A DNA stretch of 32,032 nucleotides from an uncultured bacterium (GTDB taxonomy: Bacteria > Acidobacteriota > Thermoanaerobaculia > Multivoradales > JAHZIX01). Of this stretch, positions 18,179 through 30,840 are shown one piece after another. Position 1 is the stretch's first letter; every line of letters starts with the position of its first letter. Under the pieces are notes generated by a model. It made no database searches. It worked only from the letters and a program-made list of their open reading frames with translations, and was not told the DNA's origin. The translations under genes and the position numbers were made by a program. The DNA is taken from NCBI GenBank assembly GCA_965368975.1, contig CBDUPA010000035.1, positions 1 to 32,032 of the forward strand, given 5' to 3'.

Positions 18179-18823
18179 ATGACAGACCCAAGCTCTAGCA
18201 CCCGTGACACCTTGCTCGATGCCGCCGAGGTCCTGTTCGCCGAACAGGGCATCAGCGGCGCTTCGCTGCGCGCCATCACCAAGAAGGCGGACGCCAACCT
18301 GGCCGCGGTGCACTACCACTTCGGGTCCAAGGACGCTCTGGTGCGCGCTGTCTTCGCGCGCCGCTTGGAGCCGGTGAATCATGAGCGTCTGCGCCTGCTG
18401 GACGCCCTGGAGCAGGAGCGGCAGGCTCCGTCCGTCGAGGCGATTCTGCACGCCATGATCTGGCCGGTGATGGCCATGGGCGGGGCGCAGACGAGCGACT
18501 TCAAGCGCTTGATGGGGCGGCTCTATTCCGAGCCCGGGCCCGAGATGCGCAATTTGCTGCGCGAGCAGTTTCGCGGTGTCGTCGACCGTTTCACCGCGGC
18601 GCTGCGCCGGGCATGTCCGACGCTGGGCGACGAGGAGATCTTTCTGCGCTTCCACTTCGTCATCGGTGCCATGGTGCAGCTGGCGCTCAATGCACCGATG
18701 ATCCATGAACACTCCGGTGGCCGGGTCGACCCCGGCGACGCGCGGCGCATGACCGAGCGGCTGGTGGCTTTTGCCGCCGGCGGTTTCAGTGCGCCCGCGG
18801 TCGAGTCCACGGAGGAGACCTGA
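18179..18823 (+). CDS. TetR/AcrR family regulator, PsrA-like
   Basis: LLDAAEVLFAEQG..ASLRAITKKADANLAAVHYHFGSKDAL HTH; C-terminal RFHFVIGAM and LVAFAAGGF resemble PsrA. Confidence 0.92.
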   Translation: MTDPSSSTRDTLLDAAEVLFAEQGISGASLRAITKKADANLAAVHYHFGSKDALVRAVFARRLEPVNHERLRLLDALEQERQAPSVEAILHAMIWPVMAMGGAQTSDFKRLMGRLYSEPGPEMRNLLREQFRGVVDRFTAALRRACPTLGDEEIFLRFHFVIGAMVQLALNAPMIHEHSGGRVDPGDARRMTERLVAFAAGGFSAPAVESTEET

Positions 18824-20496
18824 TGATCCTGCGACAATCGAGCGTTCCGAGGACTGGCCTCTTGGAGCGGACTGGCCTCTTGGAGCGGTACGCGGCCCTG
18901 CTGGGCCTCACGGTTCTCATCCTCGCCGCGGCTGGCTGTGCCGTGCACGACCCTCCAGACCTAGCCACAGCTTTGCCGCGGGTGCCGGAAGCGTGGACGG
19001 CCGGGGCGCAGGTTTCCCAGGCCACGTCTGAGCTCTCGCAGACCTGGTGGCGCGACTTCGGTGATCCTCAACTCGACGCCCTGATCGACGAGGCCCTGGC
19101 CCAGAACCATGACCTGCAGGCCGCCGCCGCGCGCGTCGAGCAGGCGGCGGCCGGGGTACGTATCAGCGGCGCCGAGCGCCTGCCGCAGGTGAGCGCTGGC
19201 GCCAACGCCAGCCGCTCGCGCAACGTATTTGTCGGCCTGCCGCTGCCCGGTGGCGGCGTGCTCAGCAGCACCTCGACCAACGTCGGTGCTTCGCTCAACG
19301 TCAGCTGGGAGGTCGACCTGTGGGGCCGCCTGCGAGCAGGGCAGCGCGCCGCAGTAGCCGAACTGAACGCGACCCAGGCGGAGCTCACCGCGGCTCGCCT
19401 GTCGCTGGCGGCGCAGACTGCCAAAGCCTGGTTCCAGGCTCTCACCGCGCGGCAGCAGGTGGCGCTGGCCGAGCAGACGCTCGACAGTCGGAAGCGCACC
19501 AGCCGGCAGGTACAGCGGCGCTACGAACTCGGCGTCCGACCGGCACTGGACGTGCGCCTGTCCCTCAGTCAACAGGCCAATGCCGAAGCCGCGCTGGAGG
19601 CGCGCCAGCAGCAACTCGACGCCGCCCTGCGCCAGCTCGAAGTGTTGCTTGGCCGCTATCCCTCCGCGGAGCTACGTGCGCGGCTGGACCAGGTCACGAC
19701 CGAGGGGACCGGTGCGCTGCGTGCGGTGCCGCCATCCTCTAGGCCTCTGGCAGACGCTGGTCCTCTGGCGGACGCTGGCCCTCTGGCAGACGGTGAAGGG
19801 CTGCGTCCGGTGCCTGCCGGGCTGCCGTCCGAACTGCTCGTGCGTCGACCGGACCTGCGCGCCGCCGAGCAGCGTCTCGCCGCCGCGGGCGCGCGGGTCG
19901 AGGTGGCACGCCGAGCGCTCTACCCGAGCCTGTCGCTCACCGCCTCCGGCGGTACCACCAGCGACAGCGTCAGCGATCTGCTCGACGGTAACTTCTCGGT
20001 CTGGAGCCTGGTTGGCAATCTGCTGCAGCCGGTGTTTCTGGGCGGCCGCCTGCGTGCCGCTGTCGACCAGAACCTGGCCGCCGAGGACGAAGCTCTGGCG
20101 CGCTACGCCCAGGCTGTGCTCGGTGCCCTCGCCGAGGTCGAGACCAATCTGGCAGCCGAGACCCTGCTCGATCGCCAGCTGCGCGCCCTCGACGAAGCCG
20201 TGACGCAGAGCCTCGCTGCTCAGGAACTGGCCGAGGATCGCTACGCCGGCGGTCTGGCCAGCTATCTCGACGTGCTGGAAAGTCAGCGCCAAGCGCTCAC
20301 CGCGCAGAGTCAGCGCATCGACGTTCACGGCCGCCGCCTGAACACGCGCGTCGACCTCATCCTCGCCCTTGGTGGTGGCTTCCCGGTGCCGGCCGTATCC
20401 ACCTCTTCCGCAGCTGCGTCCACGTCTTCCGAACCTCCGACCGCCATCTCGCCCGACCTCGCCAACGGCAGCCGCCAGGAGGTGCCCTCGTCATGA
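18823..20496 (+). CDS. outer membrane efflux lipoprotein (NodT/OprM family)
   Basis: Lipobox AAAG-C, WWRDFGDPQLDALI, SWEVDLWGRLR, PSELLVRRPDLRAAE, SYLDVLESQR, LILALGGG; TGATG overlap with the TetR gene. Confidence 0.95.
   Translation: MILRQSSVPRTGLLERTGLLERYAALLGLTVLILAAAGCAVHDPPDLATALPRVPEAWTAGAQVSQATSELSQTWWRDFGDPQLDALIDEALAQNHDLQAAAARVEQAAAGVRISGAERLPQVSAGANASRSRNVFVGLPLPGGGVLSSTSTNVGASLNVSWEVDLWGRLRAGQRAAVAELNATQAELTAARLSLAAQTAKAWFQALTARQQVALAEQTLDSRKRTSRQVQRRYELGVRPALDVRLSLSQQANAEAALEARQQQLDAALRQLEVLLGRYPSAELRARLDQVTTEGTGALRAVPPSSRPLADAGPLADAGPLADGEGLRPVPAGLPSELLVRRPDLRAAEQRLAAAGARVEVARRALYPSLSLTASGGTTSDSVSDLLDGNFSVWSLVGNLLQPVFLGGRLRAAVDQNLAAEDEALARYAQAVLGALAEVETNLAAETLLDRQLRALDEAVTQSLAAQELAEDRYAGGLASYLDVLESQRQALTAQSQRIDVHGRRLNTRVDLILALGGGFPVPAVSTSSAAASTSSEPPTAISPDLANGSRQEVPSS
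18851..18886 (+). repeat. perfect 18-bp tandem duplication
   Basis: GGACTGGCCTCTTGGAGC x2 (RTGLLE-RTGLLE). Confidence 0.9.
19744..19797 (+). repeat. 18-bp in-frame repeat x3
   Basis: CCTCTGGC(A/G)GACG.. encoding PLADAG-PLADAG-PLADGE. Confidence 0.9.
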
Positions 20497-21788
20497 ACAA
20501 GTTCGTCAAGATCCTTCTCCCCTTTGCTCTCCTGGGCTTCGGAATCTTCGGGGCTTTCCTGATCATCGGTTCCCGGCCCGAGGTCGAGACCGTCGAGGCA
20601 CCGGTACCGCGCACCCTGGTGCGTGTGCAAGAGATGGCGCTGCGTACCGTCAGCCTCGACGTGCGCGCGCAGGGTACCGTCGAGCCGCGCACCGCCTCCG
20701 CGCTGGTCGCCGAAGTCGGTGGTCGCATCCTCGGGGTTGCCCCCTCCTTCGTCAATGGCGGCTTCTTCAACCGCGGGCAGGTGCTGGTGCGAATCGATCC
20801 GCGCGATTATCGCACGGCCGTTGCCGCGGCGCGCGCCCAGGTGTCGCAGGCCGAGGTGCGTTTGGCGCAGGAACAGGCCGAAGCACAAGTCGCGATCGCC
20901 GAATGGCACGACCTCGGGCGCGGTGCCGAGCCGCCGCCGCTAGTGGCGCGCGAACCGCAGCTGGCCGAGGCCCGCGCCGGCCTCGACGCTGCCAAGGCCG
21001 CGCTGCAGAAGGCCGAACTCGACCTCGAACGCACCGAGCTGCGTGCTCCCTACGCTGGTCTGGTGCGCGAAAAGCTCGCCGACGTTGGTCAGTTCGTCGC
21101 GCCCGGCACGCCGGTAGCCCAGGTCTTCGCCGTCGACTACGCCGAAGTCACCTTGCCGGTACCCGGCGATCAGCTCGGCTTCCTCGAGCTGCCACGGGCC
21201 GGTAGTGCGCCCGGCCGCGGTGATACCGGACCCGTGGTCGAGTTGAGCCTGTCCGTGGCGGGAGAGCTTCGCTCCTGGGAGGCCCGTATCGTGCGCACCG
21301 AGGGAGAGATCGACCCGTCCAGCCGCATGCTCGGTCTGATTGCCCGCATTGATGATCCTTACGGCCGGCGCGACGCCCACGCGCAACCGTTGCAAGTCGG
21401 CCAGTTCGTCGACGCGCGCATCACCGGCCGCGTTGTTGAGGATGTCTTCGTGCTGCCGCGCGTGGCCCTTCGCGGCAGCGACGCGGCAAGTGGCACCGCT
21501 GGCGGCACGGCGAGTGGTCGAGCGTCGAGCCGCGTCCTCGTGCTCGACGACCGCGACGCCGACGATCCACGTCTGCGCTTCCGCGACGTCGAAGTGCTGC
21601 GCTTCCAGGGCGACCAGGTGATTCTCACCACCGGTCTGCAAGCGGGCGACAAAGTCTGCATCTCCCCGCTGGAGATGCCCCTCGAAGGTATGCGCGTGCG
21701 CGTCGCCGAGGACACACCGCCATCGCCGCCGACCCATCCGGACCAACCCTCCCTGCAAGAGCCGATCCTCGAGGAGCCCGCCCGATGA
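20493..21788 (+). CDS. RND periplasmic adaptor (membrane fusion protein)
   Basis: N-terminal TM; GTVEP..LVAEVGGRI, alpha hairpin, LERTELRAPYAG, VGQFVAPG. Confidence 0.93.
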   Translation: MNKFVKILLPFALLGFGIFGAFLIIGSRPEVETVEAPVPRTLVRVQEMALRTVSLDVRAQGTVEPRTASALVAEVGGRILGVAPSFVNGGFFNRGQVLVRIDPRDYRTAVAAARAQVSQAEVRLAQEQAEAQVAIAEWHDLGRGAEPPPLVAREPQLAEARAGLDAAKAALQKAELDLERTELRAPYAGLVREKLADVGQFVAPGTPVAQVFAVDYAEVTLPVPGDQLGFLELPRAGSAPGRGDTGPVVELSLSVAGELRSWEARIVRTEGEIDPSSRMLGLIARIDDPYGRRDAHAQPLQVGQFVDARITGRVVEDVFVLPRVALRGSDAASGTAGGTASGRASSRVLVLDDRDADDPRLRFRDVEVLRFQGDQVILTTGLQAGDKVCISPLEMPLEGMRVRVAEDTPPSPPTHPDQPSLQEPILEEPAR

Positions 21789-24700
21789 GCGAGACGACTC
21801 CCGATCAGCCGGCCCAGAAGCCCCTCGACGCACCAGACGAGACCGCAGCAGCACGCAATCCACTCAACTCCCTGGTCGGTTGGTTTGCACGCAATCCGGT
21901 GGCCGCCAACCTGATGATGCTGCTGGTCTTGGTCAGTGGCCTCAACGCACTCGCCAACACCCTGCGTCAAGAGGTCTTCCCTGAATTCTCCTCCGACCTC
22001 ATCACGATCCAGGTGCCCTACCTGGGAGCCGCGCCCGCTGAGGTCGAGGACGCGGTCTGCGCGCGCATCGAAGAGCGTATCCAGGATCTCGAAGGCATCA
22101 AGAAGCTGACCTCCGTGGCCGCCGAAGGCATGGGTGTCGTCACCGTCGAGCTGGAGCGCGGCACCGACGTGCGCGAGCTGCTCGACGACATCAAGTCGCG
22201 CGTCGATGCCATCGATACCTTCCCCGACGAGACTGAAGAGCCGATCATCCAGGAAGTGCTGATCCGCAAGCAGGTGATCACCGTCGCCATCTACGGCGAT
22301 GTCGGAGAACGTGCCTTGCGGCGCATTGGCGAGCGAGTGCGTGACGACCTGTCGTCCTTGCCGGCGATCTCGCAAGTCGAGCTGGCCGCCGTGCGTCCCT
22401 ACGAGATCTCGATCGAAGTCTCCGAGCAGGACCTTCGCCGCTATGGCCTGACCTTCGAGCAGGTCGTCGCCGCCGTGCGCGCCTCGTCGCTCGACCTCCC
22501 AGGTGGCACCATCCGCAATCGCGACGGCGAGATCCTGCTGCGCACCGCCAATCAAGCCGAGCATGGACACGAGTTCGAGCAGATGGTCTTGCTCACCCGT
22601 CCCGACGGCACCCGCCTCCTCCTCGGCGACGTTGCCACCGTCAACGATGGCTTTGCCGAGACCGACGAGACCTCCTTCTTCGATGGCAAGCCGACCGCCC
22701 TGGTGCAAGTCTTCCGCGTCGGTGAGCAGAGTGCGCTCGACATCGCCGCCGCGGTCAAGAGCTACGTCGAGCGCGAGCGTGCCGCCCTGCCCGAAGGCGT
22801 CCAGCTGACCACCTGGCAAGATGACACCGACGTCCTGCGTGGTCGTATCGACCTGCTGCTGCGCAACGGCTGGCAAGGTCTGTTGCTGGTCGTGCTGACG
22901 CTCGCCCTGCTGCTGCGCCTGCGCCTGGCACTGTGGGTGTCGCTCGGCATCCTGATCTCCTTCGCCGGGGCCCTGTGGTTGATGCCCAGCCTCGACATCT
23001 CGATCAACGTCATCTCGCTGTTCGCCTTCATCGTCGTGCTCGGCATCGTGGTCGATGACGCCATCGTCGTCGGCGAGAACATCTATCGTCATCTCGAAGA
23101 CGGCAAACCGGGCCTGCGTGCCGCCATCGACGGTGCCCGCGAAGTCGCCGTCCCCGTCACCTTCTCGATCCTCACCACCATCGCCGCCTTCGCGCCCTTG
23201 CTGCAGGTCGACACCAACACCGGCAAGATCATGCGCGTGATTCCGATGGTGGTCATCCTCACTCTCATCTTCTCGCTCGTCGAGTCCCTGTTCATCCTGC
23301 CGTCCCATCTCGCGCACAAGCCAAAGAAGAAATCGAGTGCCGCGAGCGATTGGCAGCCCAATGCGTGGCAGAGGTTCCAGGATCGCATCTCGGACGGCCT
23401 CAAGTGGTTGGTCGAGCACAGCTACAAGCCGAGCGTTGAGTTCGCCATGCGCTGGCGCTACGCTAGCCTTGCCGGTGCCGTTGCGTTGCTGCTGCTCACC
23501 CTCAGCTTGGCCGTCGGTGGTTGGATCAAGTTCACCTTCTTCCCCAAGATCGAAGCCGACAGCGTTGCCGCCTACGTCTCGATGCCCATCGGCACTCCCG
23601 CCGCGACCACCCAGCAGGCGGTCCAGCGCATGCAAGACCAGGCCCTGTTGCTGCAACGGCAGCTCGAAGCCGAGGGCCACGGCGGTGCTTTCCGTCATGT
23701 TCTCGCTTCCGTCGGTGGGCAGCCGTTCCGGAGTGGCCAGAATCGCCCCGGCGGCGGTGGTAGCAGTCAAGCCGGAACCCAGGCCCACCTCGGTGAAGTC
23801 GCCATCGAGCTGGCACCCGCCGAGACGCGCACCATCACGTCTCCCGAGATCGCCGAACGCTGGCGTCAGATGGTCGGCACCATTCCCGACGCCACCGAAC
23901 TCGTCTACTCGTCGTCGTTGTTCTCCACCGGAGAAGCCGTCAACGTGCAACTCGCCGGCTCCAGTCTCGACGTCCTGCGCCGTGCCTCGGAAGATCTCAA
24001 AGAGCGTCTGCGTGAATATCCAGGCGTCCTCGACATCGCCGATTCGTTCGATCCTGGGAAGCAGGAAATCCAGCTACAGGTGACCGACGAGGCTGAAGCC
24101 ATGGGTATCCAACTCGTCGGCGTCGCGCGCCAGGTCCGTTCTGCCTTCTACGGCGCCGAAGTCCAGCGCGTGCAGCGCGGTCGCGAAGAGGTCAAGGTGA
24201 TGGTGCGCTACCCGCCGGACGAGCGCCGCTCGATCGGTGATCTCGAAACCATGCGTGTGCGCACCCCCGACGGCCGCGAGATCCCCTTCAGCACCGCCGC
24301 CACCTACGCCATGGGCCGCGGCTATGCCACCATCCAGCGCACCGACCGTAACCGCACCATCAACGTCACCGCCGACGTCGACGCCGCAACCAATGCCAAC
24401 GAAGTCATCGCCGACCTGCGCGATCGCGTCCTTCCCGCGCTGCTGGCGGATTATCCGGGCCTGCGCTACTCCTTCGAAGGCGAACAGCAACAGCAGCGCG
24501 ATACCGCCGAAGATCTGAAAATGGGCTTCGTTTTCGCCCTGCTGATGATCTACGCTCTCCTCGCCATCCCCTTCCGCTCCTACCTGCAGCCACTCATCGT
24601 CATGACGGCGATTCCGTTTGGCTTGGTGGGAGCTATCGGTGGCCATGCCTTGCTGGGTCTGGACCTGAGCATGCTCTCCATGTTCGGCATCGTCGCCCTG

Positions 24701-25075
24701 ACCGGCGTCGTAGTGAACGACAGCCTCGTCATGGTCGACTTCATCAACCGCTCCTTCCGTACCGGTACACCCTTGTTGCAAGCCGTGCGCGAAGCCGGCG
24801 CCAAGCGCTTCCGACCGATTCTCTTGACGTCGCTGACCACCTTCATGGGGCTGCTGCCGCTCTTGCTCGAGAAGAGCCTGCAAGCGCAGTTCCTGATCCC
24901 GATGGCCGTCTCGCTAGCCTTCGGCGTCATGTTCGCCACCGCCATCTCGCTGGTGTTGGTGCCGGTCTGCTACGTGATCCTGGAGGATCTGAAGTTGCAG
25001 TGGCTCAAAGTCGTGGGGCGTCACGACGAGGTGCCGGAGGAGGGGGTGTTGGGGTTGGAGGTGGCGGAGGGCTAG
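21785..25075 (+). CDS. RND efflux permease (AcrB/AcrD/AcrF family)
   Basis: ARNPVAANL, LGIVVDDAIVVGENI, GVVVNDSLV, RFRPILLTSLTT; 1096 aa; ATGA overlap. Confidence 0.96.
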   Translation: MSETTPDQPAQKPLDAPDETAAARNPLNSLVGWFARNPVAANLMMLLVLVSGLNALANTLRQEVFPEFSSDLITIQVPYLGAAPAEVEDAVCARIEERIQDLEGIKKLTSVAAEGMGVVTVELERGTDVRELLDDIKSRVDAIDTFPDETEEPIIQEVLIRKQVITVAIYGDVGERALRRIGERVRDDLSSLPAISQVELAAVRPYEISIEVSEQDLRRYGLTFEQVVAAVRASSLDLPGGTIRNRDGEILLRTANQAEHGHEFEQMVLLTRPDGTRLLLGDVATVNDGFAETDETSFFDGKPTALVQVFRVGEQSALDIAAAVKSYVERERAALPEGVQLTTWQDDTDVLRGRIDLLLRNGWQGLLLVVLTLALLLRLRLALWVSLGILISFAGALWLMPSLDISINVISLFAFIVVLGIVVDDAIVVGENIYRHLEDGKPGLRAAIDGAREVAVPVTFSILTTIAAFAPLLQVDTNTGKIMRVIPMVVILTLIFSLVESLFILPSHLAHKPKKKSSAASDWQPNAWQRFQDRISDGLKWLVEHSYKPSVEFAMRWRYASLAGAVALLLLTLSLAVGGWIKFTFFPKIEADSVAAYVSMPIGTPAATTQQAVQRMQDQALLLQRQLEAEGHGGAFRHVLASVGGQPFRSGQNRPGGGGSSQAGTQAHLGEVAIELAPAETRTITSPEIAERWRQMVGTIPDATELVYSSSLFSTGEAVNVQLAGSSLDVLRRASEDLKERLREYPGVLDIADSFDPGKQEIQLQVTDEAEAMGIQLVGVARQVRSAFYGAEVQRVQRGREEVKVMVRYPPDERRSIGDLETMRVRTPDGREIPFSTAATYAMGRGYATIQRTDRNRTINVTADVDAATNANEVIADLRDRVLPALLADYPGLRYSFEGEQQQQRDTAEDLKMGFVFALLMIYALLAIPFRSYLQPLIVMTAIPFGLVGAIGGHALLGLDLSMLSMFGIVALTGVVVNDSLVMVDFINRSFRTGTPLLQAVREAGAKRFRPILLTSLTTFMGLLPLLLEKSLQAQFLIPMAVSLAFGVMFATAISLVLVPVCYVILEDLKLQWLKVVGRHDEVPEEGVLGLEVAEG

Positions 25076-25117: not shown

Positions 25118-26251
25118 CTAGCTCTTCTCCGTTGCCTCTTCGGGTGCTTCATCGAACTTCAGCACCGTGACCTTCAAGTGCGTGTCGTACTTGTAGATCT
25201 CGGTCAAGTCGTCGATGGGAACGCGAGTCTCCTTCTTGTCATCGTCGAACAGCCCAAGGTACTTTTGCCGGCGATTGAACCAGAGACGGCAAATTGTCTT
25301 ACGGTTGTTGTCGTCGAGCAGGATCGCCATGTAAGAGAGGTTGTCACGGTAGTGGATACGGCGTGGGTCGGTGTCGCGGCTGAGGATCGCCTTGACGATG
25401 TGGTAGCCCTCGATCTCTTCCTGAGTCGTGACGATGCGGTCTTCTTCCTCGCTGGCTTCCAACTCAGGGCTGGCTTCCTCCGTCACCGAGGTGTCGTCGC
25501 CGGTGGCCTGAGCGGGAGGTTCTCCCGTATTGAGAGCCGCACGGAGCCGGTCGCTGGTTTCCTCTGCGAGAAACTGCCGGAAAGCGCGTTGGAAGGTAGC
25601 GGTGAACTCTTCTCGGGCTTGGGAGGTGAAGCGGCCACCGCAGGTGGAGGCATGGAAGAAGCGCAGTAGCTCTTCGCTCGGGTCCGTCGTTTGCTGGCGC
25701 AGCAGGCTACGGATCTGTCCCAGGAGCTTGAGTGCGTTAGCCGAGTTCAGGACGTGTTCGAGATCGAAGGTGCCCTTGCTGAGCTTGTTGATTTCGCGCA
25801 GCAAGCCTTCTCGGCGTTCCGTGAGGTTCAAGGTCAGGAACGGCATCAAATCCATCTTGTTGGGCTCGTCGAGGTCCGAGAAGAAGCGGTACTCGATTCC
25901 ATTCGCCAAGATTGCGATGCGGGCTTTGGTCACCGAGAAGTAGCGGAAGAGCTGATGGGTCGCGGCCTTGTCGAGATTGGCGCCGATACGCTTGCACTCG
26001 ACCAAGAAAATGATTTCGCCGTTACGGGCGATGGCATAGTCGACCTTCTCGCCCTTCTTCACGCCGACGTCTGCGGTGTACTCCGGGGTCACCTCTTTGG
26101 GATCGAAGACGTCGTAGCCAAGTGCCGAGATGAAGGGCAAGATCAGAGCGTTCTTGGTAGCTTCTTCGGTTTCTAGATGGTCGAGAAGTTCAGGGATTCG
26201 TTCAGAAAGTAGAGAAATCTTGTCGATGAACTCGGCTTCGGTTGTACCCAT
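25118..26251 (-). CDS. HsdR N-terminal-domain (PD-(D/E)xK) nuclease-like protein without motor domains
   Basis: EEATKNALILPF..LGYDVFDP.EV.PE, KVDYAI...VECK, QLFRYF, NGIEYRFFSDLDEPNKMD; C-terminal IVTTQEEIEG...LLDDNNRKTICRL; RBS AAGGAGA at 26267-26261. Confidence 0.85.
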   Translation of the reverse strand: MGTTEAEFIDKISLLSERIPELLDHLETEEATKNALILPFISALGYDVFDPKEVTPEYTADVGVKKGEKVDYAIARNGEIIFLVECKRIGANLDKAATHQLFRYFSVTKARIAILANGIEYRFFSDLDEPNKMDLMPFLTLNLTERREGLLREINKLSKGTFDLEHVLNSANALKLLGQIRSLLRQQTTDPSEELLRFFHASTCGGRFTSQAREEFTATFQRAFRQFLAEETSDRLRAALNTGEPPAQATGDDTSVTEEASPELEASEEEDRIVTTQEEIEGYHIVKAILSRDTDPRRIHYRDNLSYMAILLDDNNRKTICRLWFNRRQKYLGLFDDDKKETRVPIDDLTEIYKYDTHLKVTVLKFDEAPEEATEKS

Positions 26252-26302: not shown

Positions 26303-26644
26303 TCATCTTAACAGTACGGCAGCTCGGCCAGGGTCATCAATACCGACCAAGGTGCCAACCGTTTCTTCCAGCCACTTGCCCCAGTAGCGCTCTGCTTTCA
26401 GTTTCCGGCGTAGCGCTTGAGCTGCAGCAATGTAGTCCTCGATCTCACCACCTTCGAGAAGTTCCTCGTAAAGATGCTGTTTCTTGAATCGCTCGCCGCA
26501 GTAGTTCAGGCCACTCTGCAGCAACCCCTTCCTCGAAGCGACCTGCGCCCCGTTGGCCGCTCCAATACTCACCCCCGCGCCCACCACCAGCACCGCCTCG
26601 CCGTCCCGAATCACACACCGCAGGTCGTCCAGAAAATCCGGCAT
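26303..26644 (-). pseudogene. truncated SIR2-like domain gene
   Basis: VLVVGAGVS Rossmann motif; ASRKGLL where xSWxxLL is expected; stops at 113 aa, no TTNYD motif in any frame before the next gene. Confidence 0.7.
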
Positions 26645-26767
26645 GCCGTCCTCAAGAATCTGGCTAGTTCCCGGTTAGAAGGATTGTGGCCTGTCCCGGA
26701 GGCATTCCGTGCTCTGGACCCCAGCTGATAGGCTCAAGAGGTGACCTCAGAACCCGGAGAACTTGAG

Positions 26768-26989
26768 ATGAAGTGCCACGTTTGCGGCAGCACCATGACC
26801 GAGATCACAACGGACCTACCCTTCAAGGTCAGCAACACCGCCATCGTCATCGTCAAGCAACTTCCGGTTGTGGATTGCTCCAACTGCCACGAGTACTTGC
26901 TGGCGGATCCCATCATGGAACGCGTCGAGCAGATGTTCGCCAACCTGGATGCCCGCGCTGAATTGGAAATCATCCGCTACGCGGCATGA
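26768..26989 (+). CDS. YgiT-type zinc finger (MqsA N-terminal-like) putative antitoxin
   Basis: MKCHVCG...IVIVKQLPVVDCSNCHEYL...ELEIIRYAA; ATG 26768. Confidence 0.85.
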   Translation: MKCHVCGSTMTEITTDLPFKVSNTAIVIVKQLPVVDCSNCHEYLLADPIMERVEQMFANLDARAELEIIRYAA

Positions 26990-27002
26990 ACCCCACCTGA
27001 AG

Positions 27003-27152
27003 ATGGCGTCGGACACAGATCGCGAACTGACTAGTGAGTCTCTGGCAGAAGAGCTGGAGTTGATCGACGATCGTAATCGTGACTACGAAGCGAACCCAGA
27101 CGATGTCGTTCCTTGGTCAGAGGTCAGATCAGAACTCTGGCCTGACCTCTGA
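27003..27152 (+). CDS. addiction-module antitoxin component (TIGR02574-like), probably N-terminally shortened
   Basis: EELELIDDRNRDYEANPDDVVPWSEVRSEL matches the family's C-terminal pattern; 49 aa from ATG 27003. Confidence 0.65.
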   Translation: MASDTDRELTSESLAEELELIDDRNRDYEANPDDVVPWSEVRSELWPDL

Positions 27153-27157
27153 CCGGG

Positions 27158-27398
27158 TCAGGAAGTCGCCGGAGCCCGCGCCGCCAGCATCCGCTGCAAA
27201 GCCGCTTCCGACTCCTCCGGCGGATGCCGGTTCAAGAAGTCAGAAAAAGTCCGCTGTTGCTCGGCGATGTCCGAAGCCGGTGCTGGAACGTGTCAGCTGG
27301 TACACGATGAACTGGTTCAGTGAAATGCCTTCATCGTGCGCCTGAGCTTGCAAGCTCTTGTGTAGAGAGTCGGGAAGACGGATGGTGAGTCGGCGCAT
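27158..27398 (-). pseudogene. HicB-like ribbon-helix-helix antitoxin, frameshifted; not in the ORF track
   Basis: RBS AGGAAGGGG, ATG 27398: MRRLTIRLPDSLHKSLQAQAHDEGISLNQFIVYQLTR, stop at 27240 (52 aa); +1 frame continues PAPASDIAEQQRTFSDFLNRHPPEESEAALQRMLAARAPATS* to 27158. Confidence 0.75.
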
Positions 27399-27416
27399 GA
27401 TGACCCCTTCCTACTG

Positions 27417-29984
27417 TCAGGCGAAAATATCTGCTGCCTCGAACTCATCAGTAAGGGCTTTGATCTTTTCCGGTTTGCCAAGTTCCTCCCAAATGCTACG
27501 AGCAGCCCGAAGGAACATCCGGCGCTCCGCATCGCTTTCGGCGATACGGGCTAGGTGCGGGTAAGTCTTGGCCATGGATTCGCGGTCGTCCAAGCTGAAG
27601 TAGAGACTCAGAGCCCTGTGGAAGTGCTCTTGAGCTCGTGAGATTCTGCCTTGGGCTTTGCGAACTTCGCCGAGCCGGATCAGGCAGTGGGCCTGACCGA
27701 TGATCGATCCGATGTCAGTATAGGCTTTTAATCCTTGCTGGAAACTCTTTCTGGCGTTCTCCTGGTCGTTTTGGCGCATGAAGACATCGCCAAGCTGCTG
27801 TAAGCAACGCGCCTGGCCGGTGAGGTCGCCGACCTTTCCGAAGAGTCTGCGGGCGTCCCCGAGGTGGTAAATGGTGTCTTCCAAGTTGTCAGTATCGAGC
27901 GCCGTGATGCCGAGGCCGAGCAGGCAGTTGGCTTGTCCAAGGCTCTGGTCGAGTTGTTGGAAGAGCATTCGCGCCTGCTGATAGCACTGGATTGCTGGCT
28001 CTGACTCGGCCGCGTGTCGATGAAGGTGGCCGAGCCTGAGCAAGCACTCCGCTTTGCCGTCCAGCGTGCCGAATTGTTCGAAGAGGACACTGGCCTGCTT
28101 GTAGTGCTCCCGGGCTCCCTGCGGATCGGCGGTGGTGAGCAGCAGGTCTCCAAGGCTGAGCAGGCACCGGCCGTTGCCGGGGATAGGGCCGATCTGCTCG
28201 AAGAGATTCTTCGAGGTTTCGTAGAACTCCCGGGCCTTGGCGAATTGAGACTTGCGTTGTTGGATGTCTCCCAGGCGGTGGAAGCAGTTGGCTTGTTCCA
28301 GGAGATTCTTGTCTTCGTTGTAAAGCTGGATCGCCCGTTCGTAACACTGCTCGGCTCGATCCTGGTCGGACTTTGCAATCAGTAGATCTCCCAGACCCTT
28401 CAAGCAGTCTGCCTGCCCCTTGGTATTTTGCAATCTAATGAAATATGTCAGCGCCTTCTCGTAGTGGTTCTGGGAGGTAGTGTGTCTGGATTCCAAGAGG
28501 AGGCACTGCCCGAGTCCTTGCAGGCAGGTTGCCTGGCCGCGAATATCGGCGCTTTTACTGAAGGCAATCAATCCTCGCCGGAAGTAGTTCTCGGGGTTCG
28601 TGTATTCAGGACGCAACTGGGCGATCTTGCCGAGTTGCTCGTTGAGGCGACCCTGCAGATGAATGTCCTTTTGTTTCTTGGCGATTTTCAGGGCTTGTTC
28701 AAGAGGGCGTAGAGTTCCAAGGTGAGAGAAGCGTAGGAACTCTCCCCACTGCAAGCTGATTTCGAAGGCGACATCTTGCCCTTCCTTCAGCCTTCGAGCG
28801 AGACAGCGCTCGATGTTGCTAACCTCCAATGCCAGGCGAGCCATGGCTTCGCGACCGCCGAAGCGGCCGATGTTAGGTACAAGCCGTTGTACCAGTTTCA
28901 AATAGTGCGCATCCAGGCGGGTGAGTTGAGCACCTTCGGGTTGGCAACGGCGTAGGGCGGACTCTCGGATGGGGGCGAGCATGCGGACGCGCTTGATCTC
29001 CGGCTCGGCAAAAGCGAGCCCGAGCTTGAGCAGGACGTCACGCGCTGCCAGGCCGTTCTCCGGCATGACTTGTTGCAGGTCGACGACAGCGAGGCCGTCG
29101 GGAAGTTGGCTTAGGAGGCTGAGAAGCTTCTTGGCTTCCGCTGTCATGCGAGCACTGCCCAAGGACAGCTCGAAGCTGACATCCAGGCTCTTGCGTTTGC
29201 CTTTGCCATCGCCGCGTTTGAGGACTTCGGTGCGCTTGGTCTTCCATTCCTGCCAAAGACCGCCGAGGTCCGGGGAGCCTTCGGCACGGCGGGCCAACAA
29301 CTCGATGGCGAGGGGCAGGCCGTCGCAGACGCCGAGAATGGTCTGTAGCTGGTTGTCTTCTGCGAGATCGGGGCCAGCGATGCGCAGGAACAGTTCGCGG
29401 CTGCTCGGTGGTTCCAGGCGCGAGAGGAGGATCGAAGGCTTGCGCCAGGCAAGGCCGGGGATGGTTCTGCGGCCACGCAGAGAGGCGATCAAGGCGACGC
29501 CGGGGCACTTGGCCAGCCGGGCAACGACCTGTTCGATCTGTTCTTGCTCGTCGTCCTGTTCAAGTAGGGTCTCGGCGTTGTCCAGGGCGACGACAGCCGG
29601 GACTGCCTGAAGGTGGTCCAGGATCGCTGGCAACAGCGCGTTGCCTTCGATTCCCAGTGTGCGGGCCAACTCGCTCAGCAAAGCCTCGGCGGTGGTGGCG
29701 ACGTCGCACCGGACGAAGAAGAGACGCTTGTCGTAGCGTTGGACGACGCGCTCGTCGTAGAGCGCGGACAAAGTGAGGTGACTCTTGCCGACACCGAGAT
29801 CGCCGAGGATCGCAAGAGGCTCAGGATTCTTTAGCAGCAGAGCACCGACGAGATCTTCTAGCTGATCATCGCGGCCGACACAGTGCGCCGGAGGAGGTGG
29901 TAGTAGTTCTCGGCGTTCGTTGGAGCTGAGCGTCTCAGTTGTAGAGATTGTCTCGAACATCGCCTCGGAATCTTTCTCAGGCAT
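27417..29984 (-). CDS. STAND NTPase (NB-ARC-like) + TPR protein with no N-terminal effector domain
   Basis: CVGRD, Walker A GDLGVGKS, Walker B VVALDNAE, ASLRG, CDGLPLAIEL, SFELS; about 9 TPR units of ~40 aa; RBS GAGGAAG. Confidence 0.9.
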   Translation of the reverse strand: MPEKDSEAMFETISTTETLSSNERRELLPPPPAHCVGRDDQLEDLVGALLLKNPEPLAILGDLGVGKSHLTLSALYDERVVQRYDKRLFFVRCDVATTAEALLSELARTLGIEGNALLPAILDHLQAVPAVVALDNAETLLEQDDEQEQIEQVVARLAKCPGVALIASLRGRRTIPGLAWRKPSILLSRLEPPSSRELFLRIAGPDLAEDNQLQTILGVCDGLPLAIELLARRAEGSPDLGGLWQEWKTKRTEVLKRGDGKGKRKSLDVSFELSLGSARMTAEAKKLLSLLSQLPDGLAVVDLQQVMPENGLAARDVLLKLGLAFAEPEIKRVRMLAPIRESALRRCQPEGAQLTRLDAHYLKLVQRLVPNIGRFGGREAMARLALEVSNIERCLARRLKEGQDVAFEISLQWGEFLRFSHLGTLRPLEQALKIAKKQKDIHLQGRLNEQLGKIAQLRPEYTNPENYFRRGLIAFSKSADIRGQATCLQGLGQCLLLESRHTTSQNHYEKALTYFIRLQNTKGQADCLKGLGDLLIAKSDQDRAEQCYERAIQLYNEDKNLLEQANCFHRLGDIQQRKSQFAKAREFYETSKNLFEQIGPIPGNGRCLLSLGDLLLTTADPQGAREHYKQASVLFEQFGTLDGKAECLLRLGHLHRHAAESEPAIQCYQQARMLFQQLDQSLGQANCLLGLGITALDTDNLEDTIYHLGDARRLFGKVGDLTGQARCLQQLGDVFMRQNDQENARKSFQQGLKAYTDIGSIIGQAHCLIRLGEVRKAQGRISRAQEHFHRALSLYFSLDDRESMAKTYPHLARIAESDAERRMFLRAARSIWEELGKPEKIKALTDEFEAADIFA

Positions 29985-30080
29985 AATTCTTCCTCAAAAG
30001 ACTTCGGGTGGAATAAAGTGATCGAAAGCATACTATGCAGAGAAAGCAGTGAAAAATTATTAATATAAGATATTCTGAGG
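29985..30080 (-). promoter_or_regulatory. AT-rich upstream region of the STAND gene
   Basis: Most AT-rich stretch of the window; minus-strand TTTTCA-17nt-TATGCT with an A/T tract upstream. Confidence 0.4.
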
Positions 30081-30124
30081 CGTAGATGTGCGTGTGAGGT
30101 TCTGCTCTTTGCGATTGTCCGACC

Positions 30125-30700
30125 TCAATTCGTCAGGTACGCCCACACATTGACCGCCGCCGCCCGCCCCGTGGTGTTGTAGAGCAGCACGCGGTACTGC
30201 GGAAACCCAATCCGCAGGTTGGTTTCGCTGCCGCTGGCGTAAGAGCCTTCGCTCATTGCCGCGGGTGCCTTGGCTTCCAGGGATAGGTGGATCTCGCCGT
30301 CGAACTGGAAGGAGCGGACGATCGAGTCCTCTTCGGGCAGCAATACGACGCCGATCTCGCCGTCGGTGAAGACGTTGTCTTTGATCTGGGCGTGGACGCT
30401 CAGCGTCATGCCGGTGAAGCCGTCCGTGTCGAGCGTGCCGATCTCGGTGAACTGGGTTGTCTCGTGACGTTGAGCGGGAGAGATGGTGAGGTCGGGGAAG
30501 CGCTCGAACTTGCTGTGGTGGACGGTGCCGTTGATGCCGACACGACCTCGGACCGGGTGCGGGTTCTCCAAGTTGGTGACGTACACCGACCGCTGCTCGG
30601 GATCCCGGAAGCGGTCTTGGGCGAGTAGCACGCCGACGGCGAGGGTTGCGATCAAGAGGGCCGCGAGGGCTGGTAGCGAACGCGGAAAGATGGGTTTCAT
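30125..30700 (-). CDS. secreted hypothetical protein
   Basis: RBS AAGGAGG, signal peptide ending LLA-Q, beta-strand-rich body, GC3-rich codons. Confidence 0.8.
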   Translation of the reverse strand: MKPIFPRSLPALAALLIATLAVGVLLAQDRFRDPEQRSVYVTNLENPHPVRGRVGINGTVHHSKFERFPDLTISPAQRHETTQFTEIGTLDTDGFTGMTLSVHAQIKDNVFTDGEIGVVLLPEEDSIVRSFQFDGEIHLSLEAKAPAAMSEGSYASGSETNLRIGFPQYRVLLYNTTGRAAAVNVWAYLTN

Positions 30701-30840
30701 GGCTTACCTCCTTGCTGGAATTCTACGGGCGAGGAGGGGCTGGTGTCGCCTCGGCCGTCTCAAGGTTCGAGGGCGCCGCGGAATTCCGGTTTCTCAGACG
30801 GCGGTTACCGTGTCCAAGCCCATACAGAAGGAGGACGGTC

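Follow-up and report, generated by a model that had tools for sequence, protein, structure and literature searches.

The described systems closest to the locus considered here are the Avs receptors, in particular Avs5 (SIR2-STAND-sensor), in which oligomerization switches on the SIR2 domain, as set out in the accessible portions of two reports (PMC11897194, PMC12931631). In the accessible portion of another study, mutation or deletion of the effector domain abolished cell death in all cases tested, and defense and non-defense STAND clades are described as interspersed (PMC13581612). In addition, AP-ATPase-TPR STAND genes have been found next to separate TRADD-N genes, with effectors recruited via adaptor domains (PMC8195603, in the part accessible to us). 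Here, we analyze a 32,032-bp stretch of DNA from an uncultured acidobacterium (contig CBDUPA010000035.1, analyzed in its entirety and called the window below), which belongs to a 7.1-Mb genome that is 99.3% complete. On this contig, a gene for a STAND NTPase with a TPR sensor array lacks any N-terminal effector, and a short piece of a SIR2 gene lies downstream of it on the same strand. With a probability of roughly 55%, we read the two as the decayed remains of two neighboring genes of one NLR-like STAND-TPR family, now without an executor.

A receptor gene without an effector and a SIR2 stub

Two genes and three elements within the first of them carry the argument:

27417..29984, minus strand: STAND NTPase plus TPR array, lacking an N-terminal effector; 855 aa, frame intact (Pfam, alignment, AlphaFold2)
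29781..29804, minus strand: Walker A (P-loop) GDLGVGKS, aa 61-68; G61, G64, G66 and K67 are nearly invariant family columns
29562..29594, minus strand: Walker B region VVALDNAETLL, aa 131-141; D135, N136 and E138 kept (alignment)
27420..28709, minus strand: TPR sensor array with the family's conserved C-terminal cap, aa ~426-855 (Pfam, alignment, AlphaFold2)
26303..26644, minus strand: SIR2 stub, 113 aa; the first ~100-105 residues of a family SIR2 effector, then ~8 unrelated residues and a stop

The first-pass annotation of this DNA had pointed to a STAND open reading frame (ORF) with intact Walker A/B and GLPLA motifs but only ~28 aa before the NTPase, and the present analysis bears this out. 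Pfam finds TPR_12 (2.7e-34) and AAA_22 (7.7e-9) in the 855-aa protein, with NB-ARC (1.7e-4) falling under its cut-off, and homology with 22 relatives runs from aa ~27-30, at a linker of the form LPPxP..GRD, to the C-terminal end. The Walker B residues D135, N136 and E138 are invariant across these 22 relatives and the window protein, as is the sensor-1 arginine, R170. The GLPLA motif lies at aa 222, and the GLPLA/LAPIRE helical and winged-helix columns P224, L225, L229, L336, P338 and R340 are likewise invariant, the window protein included. A 120-nt periodicity in the DNA of the TPR-coding part corresponds to repeat family D1. AlphaFold2, run with 23 alignment rows, gives a mean predicted local distance difference test score (pLDDT) of 90.9 and a predicted template modeling score of 0.80, with pLDDT below 50 only at residues 1-25 and 853-855. 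The nearest solved structure to this model is a STAND-TPR protein, 6mfv_A (Foldseek E 1e-12, 749 aligned columns, 14% identity), and the family's NTPase profile matches the NB-ARC region of ZAR1 (6j5t, E 3.8e-10).

One motif departs from the family pattern. The ETPW that follows Walker B in the family reads Leu-Leu in the window, at positions (P140, W141) that are at least 90% conserved among 23 sequences. In this alignment, which was collected independently of the motif, the window protein alone lacks the Pro-Trp; a second set of loci shows Pro-Trp in 100% of its members, but that figure is circular, those loci having been found by means of the ETPW motif.

What, then, stands in front of the NTPase? 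Only 27 aa precede the linker, and no Pfam domain is found in them. The open frame extends only three codons beyond the ATG on its 5' side (858 aa in all), and residues 1-25 are predicted from the structural model to be disordered, so that the protein carries neither an effector nor an adaptor domain. A tblastn search of the DNA upstream of the ATG (29985-30800, E<=5) for residual effector coding gave nothing above noise, and a promoter and terminator scan found no sigma-70 consensus upstream of the gene, with counts the same as in shuffled sequences. Residues 2-24 weakly resemble the C-terminal TIR helix of two relatives, L022 and P0012, with a local score of 38 that was reached by 7 of 300 shuffles; this resemblance hints that the upstream gene may once have carried a TIR domain.

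The protein is also isolated within its family. It is a singleton (one member, one contig), the best relative shares 33% identity with it across 93% of its length, and we found no close ortholog, no relative being nearer than 33-45% identity. Its NTPase part is matched in just two of 40 related genomes (G021, G007), and matches within its own genome are limited to the TPR part, with no NTPase-level paralog. On an NTPase tree of 91 rows, its terminal branch measures 1.0 against a median of 0.31; similarly long tips (0.89-1.16) belong to three relatives with short N-termini, L065, L066 and L070, and besides these to just two other rows. PADLOC matches no Avs model to it, giving only TPR-region matches and a weak one to DpdH (aa 43-114, E 0.013). 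A search for related loci with the window protein alone returned no relative; the loci described below come from alignment-based scans, which succeeded.

The stub begins 772 bp past the STAND stop (from 27417 to its ATG at 26644), on the same strand and downstream, in agreement with the earlier description of a SIR2-like start ~770 bp away, and it matches the N-termini of SIR2 proteins. It has no match in Pfam (E<=0.1, SIR2_2 PF13289 included), NCBIfam or PADLOC. Paired with the SIR2-STAND protein P0020, it covers aa 17-124 of that protein at 37% identity (E 2e-18 for the pairwise comparison), and the N-terminal Rossmann strand and GAGxS glycine loop (here GAGVS) are present, VLVVGAGVSIGA aligning with IAIVGAGVSIGA of P0020. 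When 1.84 billion representatives were searched exhaustively with HMMER, the stub matched 331 proteins at E<=1e-3, which supersedes an earlier word-index search for longer relatives that had given none; among the stub matches listed, the match starts within the first 40 residues in 139 of 150. All ten of the longer matches tested (414-1203 aa) carry Pfam SIR2_2 from aa 122-129, just past the part that the stub covers, and in them SIR2_2 is fused to CHAT, FGE-sulfatase, TPR or STAND-TPR modules, or stands alone. The five short matches tested (111-183 aa) have no Pfam match. The idea that the stub represents a conserved family of mini-proteins was rejected, ten short look-alikes proving to be singletons or members of two-member clusters.

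The same layout holds within the STAND-TPR family, where SIR2_2 begins at aa 117-159 in 22 of 23 SIR2-bearing N-termini (88 in L012, 263 in L036) and the model spans aa ~122-250 of the relatives, a region absent from the stub. A tblastn comparison of the stub with 81 related loci gives matches in 24, all of them loci in which the STAND gene has SIR2. The first-pass annotation had proposed comparing both ORFs with full-length SIR2-STAND-TPR proteins, and the two do match the C- and N-terminal parts of the same such proteins (P0020, P0003, P0004, P0007). Judged by these alignments, the 113-aa ORF is, far beyond chance, an N-terminal piece of the SIR2 effector of the same STAND family.

The piece consists of the first Rossmann strand, the GAGVS loop and a helical segment. 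Its homology ceases at residue ~99-105, and it ends before the TTNYD and HLHG stretches of its relatives, which we take to be the SIR2 catalytic core. The rest of the domain (P0020 aa 126-307) was found neither in the window nor in the 7.1-Mb genome. On contigs C1, C3, C9, C15 and others (L110-L122), this genome (G000) has a large repertoire of conflict-type multidomain proteins: SIR2_2 is matched five more times, in open frames of 738-1319 aa, and TIR_2 17 times, the longest of its frames reaching 1007 aa. None of its other SIR2_2 proteins is a close paralog of the stub.

Effector exchange, effector loss and a conserved gene pair in the family

At 33-43% identity, the proteins most closely related to the STAND ORF carry an N-terminal SIR2_2, TIR_2, DUF4062, FAD-type, hydrolase or cyclase domain. 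An alignment-based scan with one genome per species gave 80 loci from many phyla, and 75 N-termini were extracted from them. SIR2_2 accounts for 23 of these, TIR_2 and DUF4062 for nine each, FAD-type domains for five and cyclases for three; Metallophos, EAD11 (in L053), hydrolase and nucleoside phosphorylase domains occur once each, and in the remaining 22 Pfam recognizes no domain. As a rule, members of this STAND-TPR family carry an N-terminal domain, and the intact ones follow a common plan: an N-terminal effector (mostly SIR2), a linker, an NB-ARC-like NTPase and a TPR sensor. PADLOC assigns the relatives' effectors to Thoeris ThsA/ThsB, Lamassu LmuA and Dsr1 models; for the NTPase-TPR part of eight full-length relatives it finds no Avs model, only TPR and effector-domain matches. 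Proteins of basidiomycetes (Auricularia and Calocera; P0026, P0028-P0030 and P0043, E 1e-14 to 1e-49) have other N-terminal domains, and because they stand among the significant relatives the family spans kingdoms.

The distribution of effector types over the NTPase tree requires 31 changes, where 13 would be the lowest number possible. Records from Skermanella hold near-identical NTPase-TPR parts (branches of 0.05-0.15), with SIR2 in front of one (P0003/L013) and TIR in front of the other (P0014/L015), which is effector exchange at a very short evolutionary distance. A third protein, P0006, begins at the linker.

Loss is also recurrent. The effector and the NTPase are separated by a frameshift in L015, L030, L037 and L082, each of them a single tip of the tree. 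In-frame internal deletions have joined the first half of SIR2 to an NTPase without Walker A in one locus (L076:5517-8070), and 27 aa of DUF4062 to the linker in another (L023:5845-8106). Three relatives (L065, L066 and L070) have a short N-terminus with no trace of an effector, and their neighborhoods (25 ORFs) contain no effector domain, only ParD, HxlR, ArdA, a sigma factor and metabolic genes. When a wider set of 144 copies is considered, the stretch before the linker is shorter than 60 aa in 13. Tandem family copies on the same strand occur at six distinct loci among 158, a set that contains a few duplicates shared by its genome and metagenome parts.

One such arrangement is conserved. 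At L019:937-8109 (= L144) and L167:4525-10016, an effector-less STAND-TPR gene, here called A (713 aa in L019, 708 aa in L167), has a full SIR2-STAND-TPR gene, B, downstream of it on the same strand. The identities between the two A proteins (62%) and between the two B proteins (60%) exceed those between A and B (41-50%), which dates the pair to before the two lineages split. The A clade comprises 23 clusters of 546-713 aa and 54-100% identity, whose proteins start at the linker, save two that are shortened at the N-terminus. In all of them the Walker A Lys is changed to Arg or the Ser/Thr is changed (mostly to Ala), and the Walker B Asp and sensor-1 Arg are lost. Going by these residues, the A proteins are probably catalytically dead, and they are evidently maintained by selection. 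A is absent from three of five distinct loci of close B orthologs (L017, L018, L157), and among 300 genomes of the class to which the L019 genome belongs, an A-type gene was found only in that genome itself.

The window protein was considered as a member of the A clade and rejected: it is 34% identical to A and 36% to B, and its Walker A, Walker B and sensor-1 Arg are intact.

Decayed remains or a working receptor

How would an intact member of this family work? By analogy with the Avs scheme, we infer that the TPR sensor would bind a phage protein, that the NTPase would then drive oligomerization, and that the clustered SIR2 domains would destroy NAD+, with the infected cell dying or stalling. 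In the window, the upstream gene keeps a complete, catalytically competent-looking NTPase and sensor without effector or adaptor, and the downstream gene is cut after ~105 codons, before the SIR2 catalytic core, at its junction with a mobile HSDR_N gene. Because the effector is missing upstream and the SIR2 core is missing downstream, these two genes could not by themselves complete the chain from sensing to killing. Most likely, the STAND-TPR that survives is inert or at best a residual sensor, recently orphaned or kept open by chance.

The two pieces do not represent one gene split by a frameshift, because the SIR2 piece lies downstream here whereas SIR2 precedes the NTPase in the relatives. 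Considering the frequent effector changes on the tree and the existence of natural tandem copies, the simplest origin is two adjacent family genes, each of them truncated. The gene structure, the homologies, the absent parts and the broken neighboring gene are observations, whereas we infer that there were originally two genes, in what order the events took place and that function is now lost. Decay is further suggested by the recurrence of broken or missing effectors at single tips, by the standing of the window protein as a long-branch singleton without the Pro-Trp, and by independent decay in the surrounding islet, where a frameshift interrupts a HicB-like gene that has no toxin partner, and where two other antitoxin-like ORFs are likewise toxin-less. 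The islet has these further features:

29985..30124, minus strand: AT-rich spacer upstream of the STAND gene, where the low-GC block ends on the right; GAGGAAG stands 4 nt ahead of the ATG (read from the sequence)
27158..27398, minus strand: frameshifted antitoxin gene of the HicB/ribbon-helix-helix (RHH) family, 18 bp past the STAND stop; Pfam HicB 3.9e-10, aa 4-35
27003..27152, plus strand: Unstab_antitox / TIGR02574-like ORF, 49 aa; the C-terminal two thirds of the models, under curated cut-offs
26741..26989, plus strand: YgiT-type zinc-finger (MqsA-like) ORF, 82 aa, with no helix-turn-helix half; NCBIfam TIGR03831 7.1e-10, above cut-off
25118..26251, minus strand: HSDR_N-domain gene, 377 aa, intact; Pfam HSDR_N 5.5e-15; own AAGGAGA

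The HicB-like gene has its N- and C-terminal parts in different frames, with the break near codon 40, and its homologs in L099-L101 are read in one frame. Intact homologs have 76-84 aa, and in L099 and L100 they follow a gene that reads as a putative PIN-type toxin. No toxin gene lies beside the window copy, where the 3' end of the STAND gene occupies the toxin's position; neither is there one beside the Unstab_antitox-like ORF or the YgiT-type ORF, the latter of which also matches Pfam MqsA and YokU weakly. The ATG of the HSDR_N gene lies 51 bp past the stub's stop, and its protein scores 0.98 with atlas clusters of 357-383 aa that have the same domains. At the DNA level it is 70-73% identical to plasmid genes annotated as 'type I restriction endonuclease' in Curtobacterium, Kocuria, Variovorax and Rhizobium, and to the same degree to parts of phage endonuclease genes. 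It is a member of a widely traveling, mobile gene family, and was the sole islet gene with a match in the plasmid and phage collections.

The islet coincides with a low-GC block at 25.08-30.12 kb (0.56-0.62 within 25-31 kb, vs 0.63-0.72 across most of the window). Its right-hand neighbors, genes for a 191-aa (hyp191) and a 462-aa (p462) protein, are kept side by side in a relative, G003. The putative RND pump on the left is not adjacent to this pair in G003 or G005, and because of this separation the left edge cannot be fixed by comparison. The pump region itself (18823-25075, plus strand) consists of three consecutive ORFs in the ORF list, the last of 1096 aa and ending 42 bp before the islet; from their translations, they look like an operon for an outer-membrane factor, a membrane-fusion protein and an RND transporter. 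Neither the block nor the stub has plausible flanking repeats, direct or inverted; the only repeats seen are the TPR periodicity and short chance-like pairs. The five neighbor proteins of the STAND gene have no match in the 80 related loci. In a sediment metagenome run (X1), a 430-nt contig is identical to 28392-28821 of the STAND gene, and no contig there bridges a junction. Overall, the block looks like a small, foreign, horizontally acquired and decaying islet of defense and toxin-antitoxin genes.

Several observations weigh against reading the locus as a wreck. The 855-codon frame is fully open, with all the catalytic motifs, the full TPR array and the C-terminal cap; the AlphaFold2 fold is confident, and the gene is preceded by an AT-rich leader with a Shine-Dalgarno-like GAGGAAG of its own. 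Frame, motifs and fold would not be so intact in a gene long dead. Moreover, a branch of ~1 change per site without a stop codon argues for selection having been at work over at least the greater part of this period. The A clade, conserved beside SIR2-STAND-TPR genes, demonstrates that an effector-less STAND-TPR can persist; the five SIR2_2 and 17 TIR_2 proteins of the genome could in principle supply effectors; and the frameshift in the HicB-like gene could be a sequencing error.

If the receptor is intact, could it be signaling in trans? It is possible, though unlikely, that the effector-less STAND-TPR is a working receptor, for example one that co-oligomerizes with an effector-bearing paralog, with the stub being the wreck of a partner or irrelevant. 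Beyond the intact ORF, motifs, fold and ribosome-binding site and the genome's own SIR2_2 and TIR_2 proteins, this explanation can draw on the recruitment of effectors via adaptors, and the separate TRADD-N neighbors, in other STAND systems (PMC8195603, in its accessible part). It can also draw on the A/B precedent in L019 and L167 and on the A clade of 23 clusters: in L019 a PIN toxin gene stands between A and B, and in the window toxin-antitoxin remnants likewise separate an effector-less gene from the start of a SIR2 gene. However, the window protein lies outside the A clade and keeps the Walker A/B and sensor-1 residues that are lost or changed in all the listed A proteins, its would-be partner is only a stub, and it has no adaptor domain. 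No neighbor is conserved across the 80 loci, the genome offers no NTPase-level paralog with which to co-assemble, and A is dispensable even in the precedent, as its absence at L017, L018 and L157 shows. A narrower version, in which the window protein is a living sensor-only NLR that hetero-oligomerizes with an effector-bearing paralog, the pair being caught just after loss or exchange of the executor, is rather more doubtful.

The first-pass annotation had left the choice between remains of tandem paralogs undergoing effector swapping and a sensor-only receptor acting in trans, with decay as an equally plausible reading. Its first half is the better supported, by the downstream position of the SIR2 piece, the six tandem loci and the 31 effector changes against a minimum of 13. 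Signaling in trans finds no direct backing at this locus, where there is no adaptor, no neighbor shared with the 80 loci and no catalytic core in the SIR2 piece. Decay is favored, given the frameshifted neighbor gene and the lack of an ortholog.

There is a slim chance that both pieces derive from a single permuted SIR2-STAND-TPR gene, through a tandem duplication followed by two deletions, after which copy 1 would consist of its 3' two thirds and copy 2 of its 5' 330 nt. The pieces are on the same strand, have SIR2-STAND-TPR proteins among the best matches of each, and are complementary on P0020 (aa 13-125 for one; aa 308-661 and beyond for the other), with the middle absent. But the 772 bp between them are taken up by unrelated genes of opposite orientation, the STAND protein begins with 24 residues that weakly resemble the end of a TIR domain (L022, P0012) and not that of SIR2, natural tandems of distinct paralogs exist, and no flanking direct repeats were found. 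Least probable of all is a non-immune regulator of the MalT/AfsR kind that never needed an enzymatic effector and perhaps acted with the RHH gene: the TPR part does match AfsR and MalT-type TPR models, the RHH gene does begin 18 bp past the STAND stop, and defense and non-defense clades are interspersed (accessible portion of PMC13581612), but the nearest relatives bear SIR2, TIR, DUF4062 and other effectors, to which PADLOC assigns Thoeris, Lamassu and Dsr1 models, a frameshift breaks the RHH gene, its homologs belong to toxin-antitoxin pairs, and none of the 80 related loci has a HicB/RHH homolog.

Comparison with known systems

The intact members of the family are close in design to Avs, and especially to Avs5, with which they share the tripartite order of SIR2, STAND NTPase and C-terminal helical-repeat sensor. 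They differ in that no PADLOC Avs model matches the window protein or the eight relatives and in that the NTPase profile matches the NB-ARC of plant ZAR1; the window gene differs further in being without any effector. The family is thus of an Avs-like kind already known in outline, and the window is a degenerate variant of it. It may even be named among the 589 published STAND clades (PMC13581612, accessible portion). The best structural match over NTPase and TPR, 6mfv, is known here by its entry title and gives no pointer to an immune function.

A second comparison is with STAND systems that use adaptors (EAD or Death-like domains), in which an enzyme-less STAND-TPR recruits separately encoded effectors, going by what is accessible of the published descriptions; one relative of the window protein, L053, carries EAD11. 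The window protein differs from these in having ~25 residues, predicted to be disordered, before its linker, and no adaptor-bearing gene lies nearby. A literature search found no bacterial sensor/executor STAND pair and no paper on effector-less antiviral STANDs, and phrases for the latter have 0 occurrences in the accessible portion of PMC13581612.

As a probable wreck, the locus mainly illustrates the speed at which bacterial NLR-like genes shed and exchange their killing domains. It also carries a caution for annotation, namely that an intact-looking STAND-TPR gene in a defense islet need not be a complete system.

In plants, paired NLRs consist of an effector-less or signaling-incompetent receptor encoded beside an executor paralog; these pairs are usually head-to-head and have different domains. 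The A/B pair of L019 and L167 may be a bacterial paired NLR. The window resembles this pair in order and strand, with an upstream effector-less gene that starts at the linker and a SIR2-type gene downstream, and differs from it in that the downstream partner is a 113-aa stub and not a full SIR2-STAND-TPR. The conserved A/B pair is a more interesting lead than the window locus and the part worth following: if A and B work together, a division of labor between sensor and helper like that of plant NLRs would exist in bacteria too.

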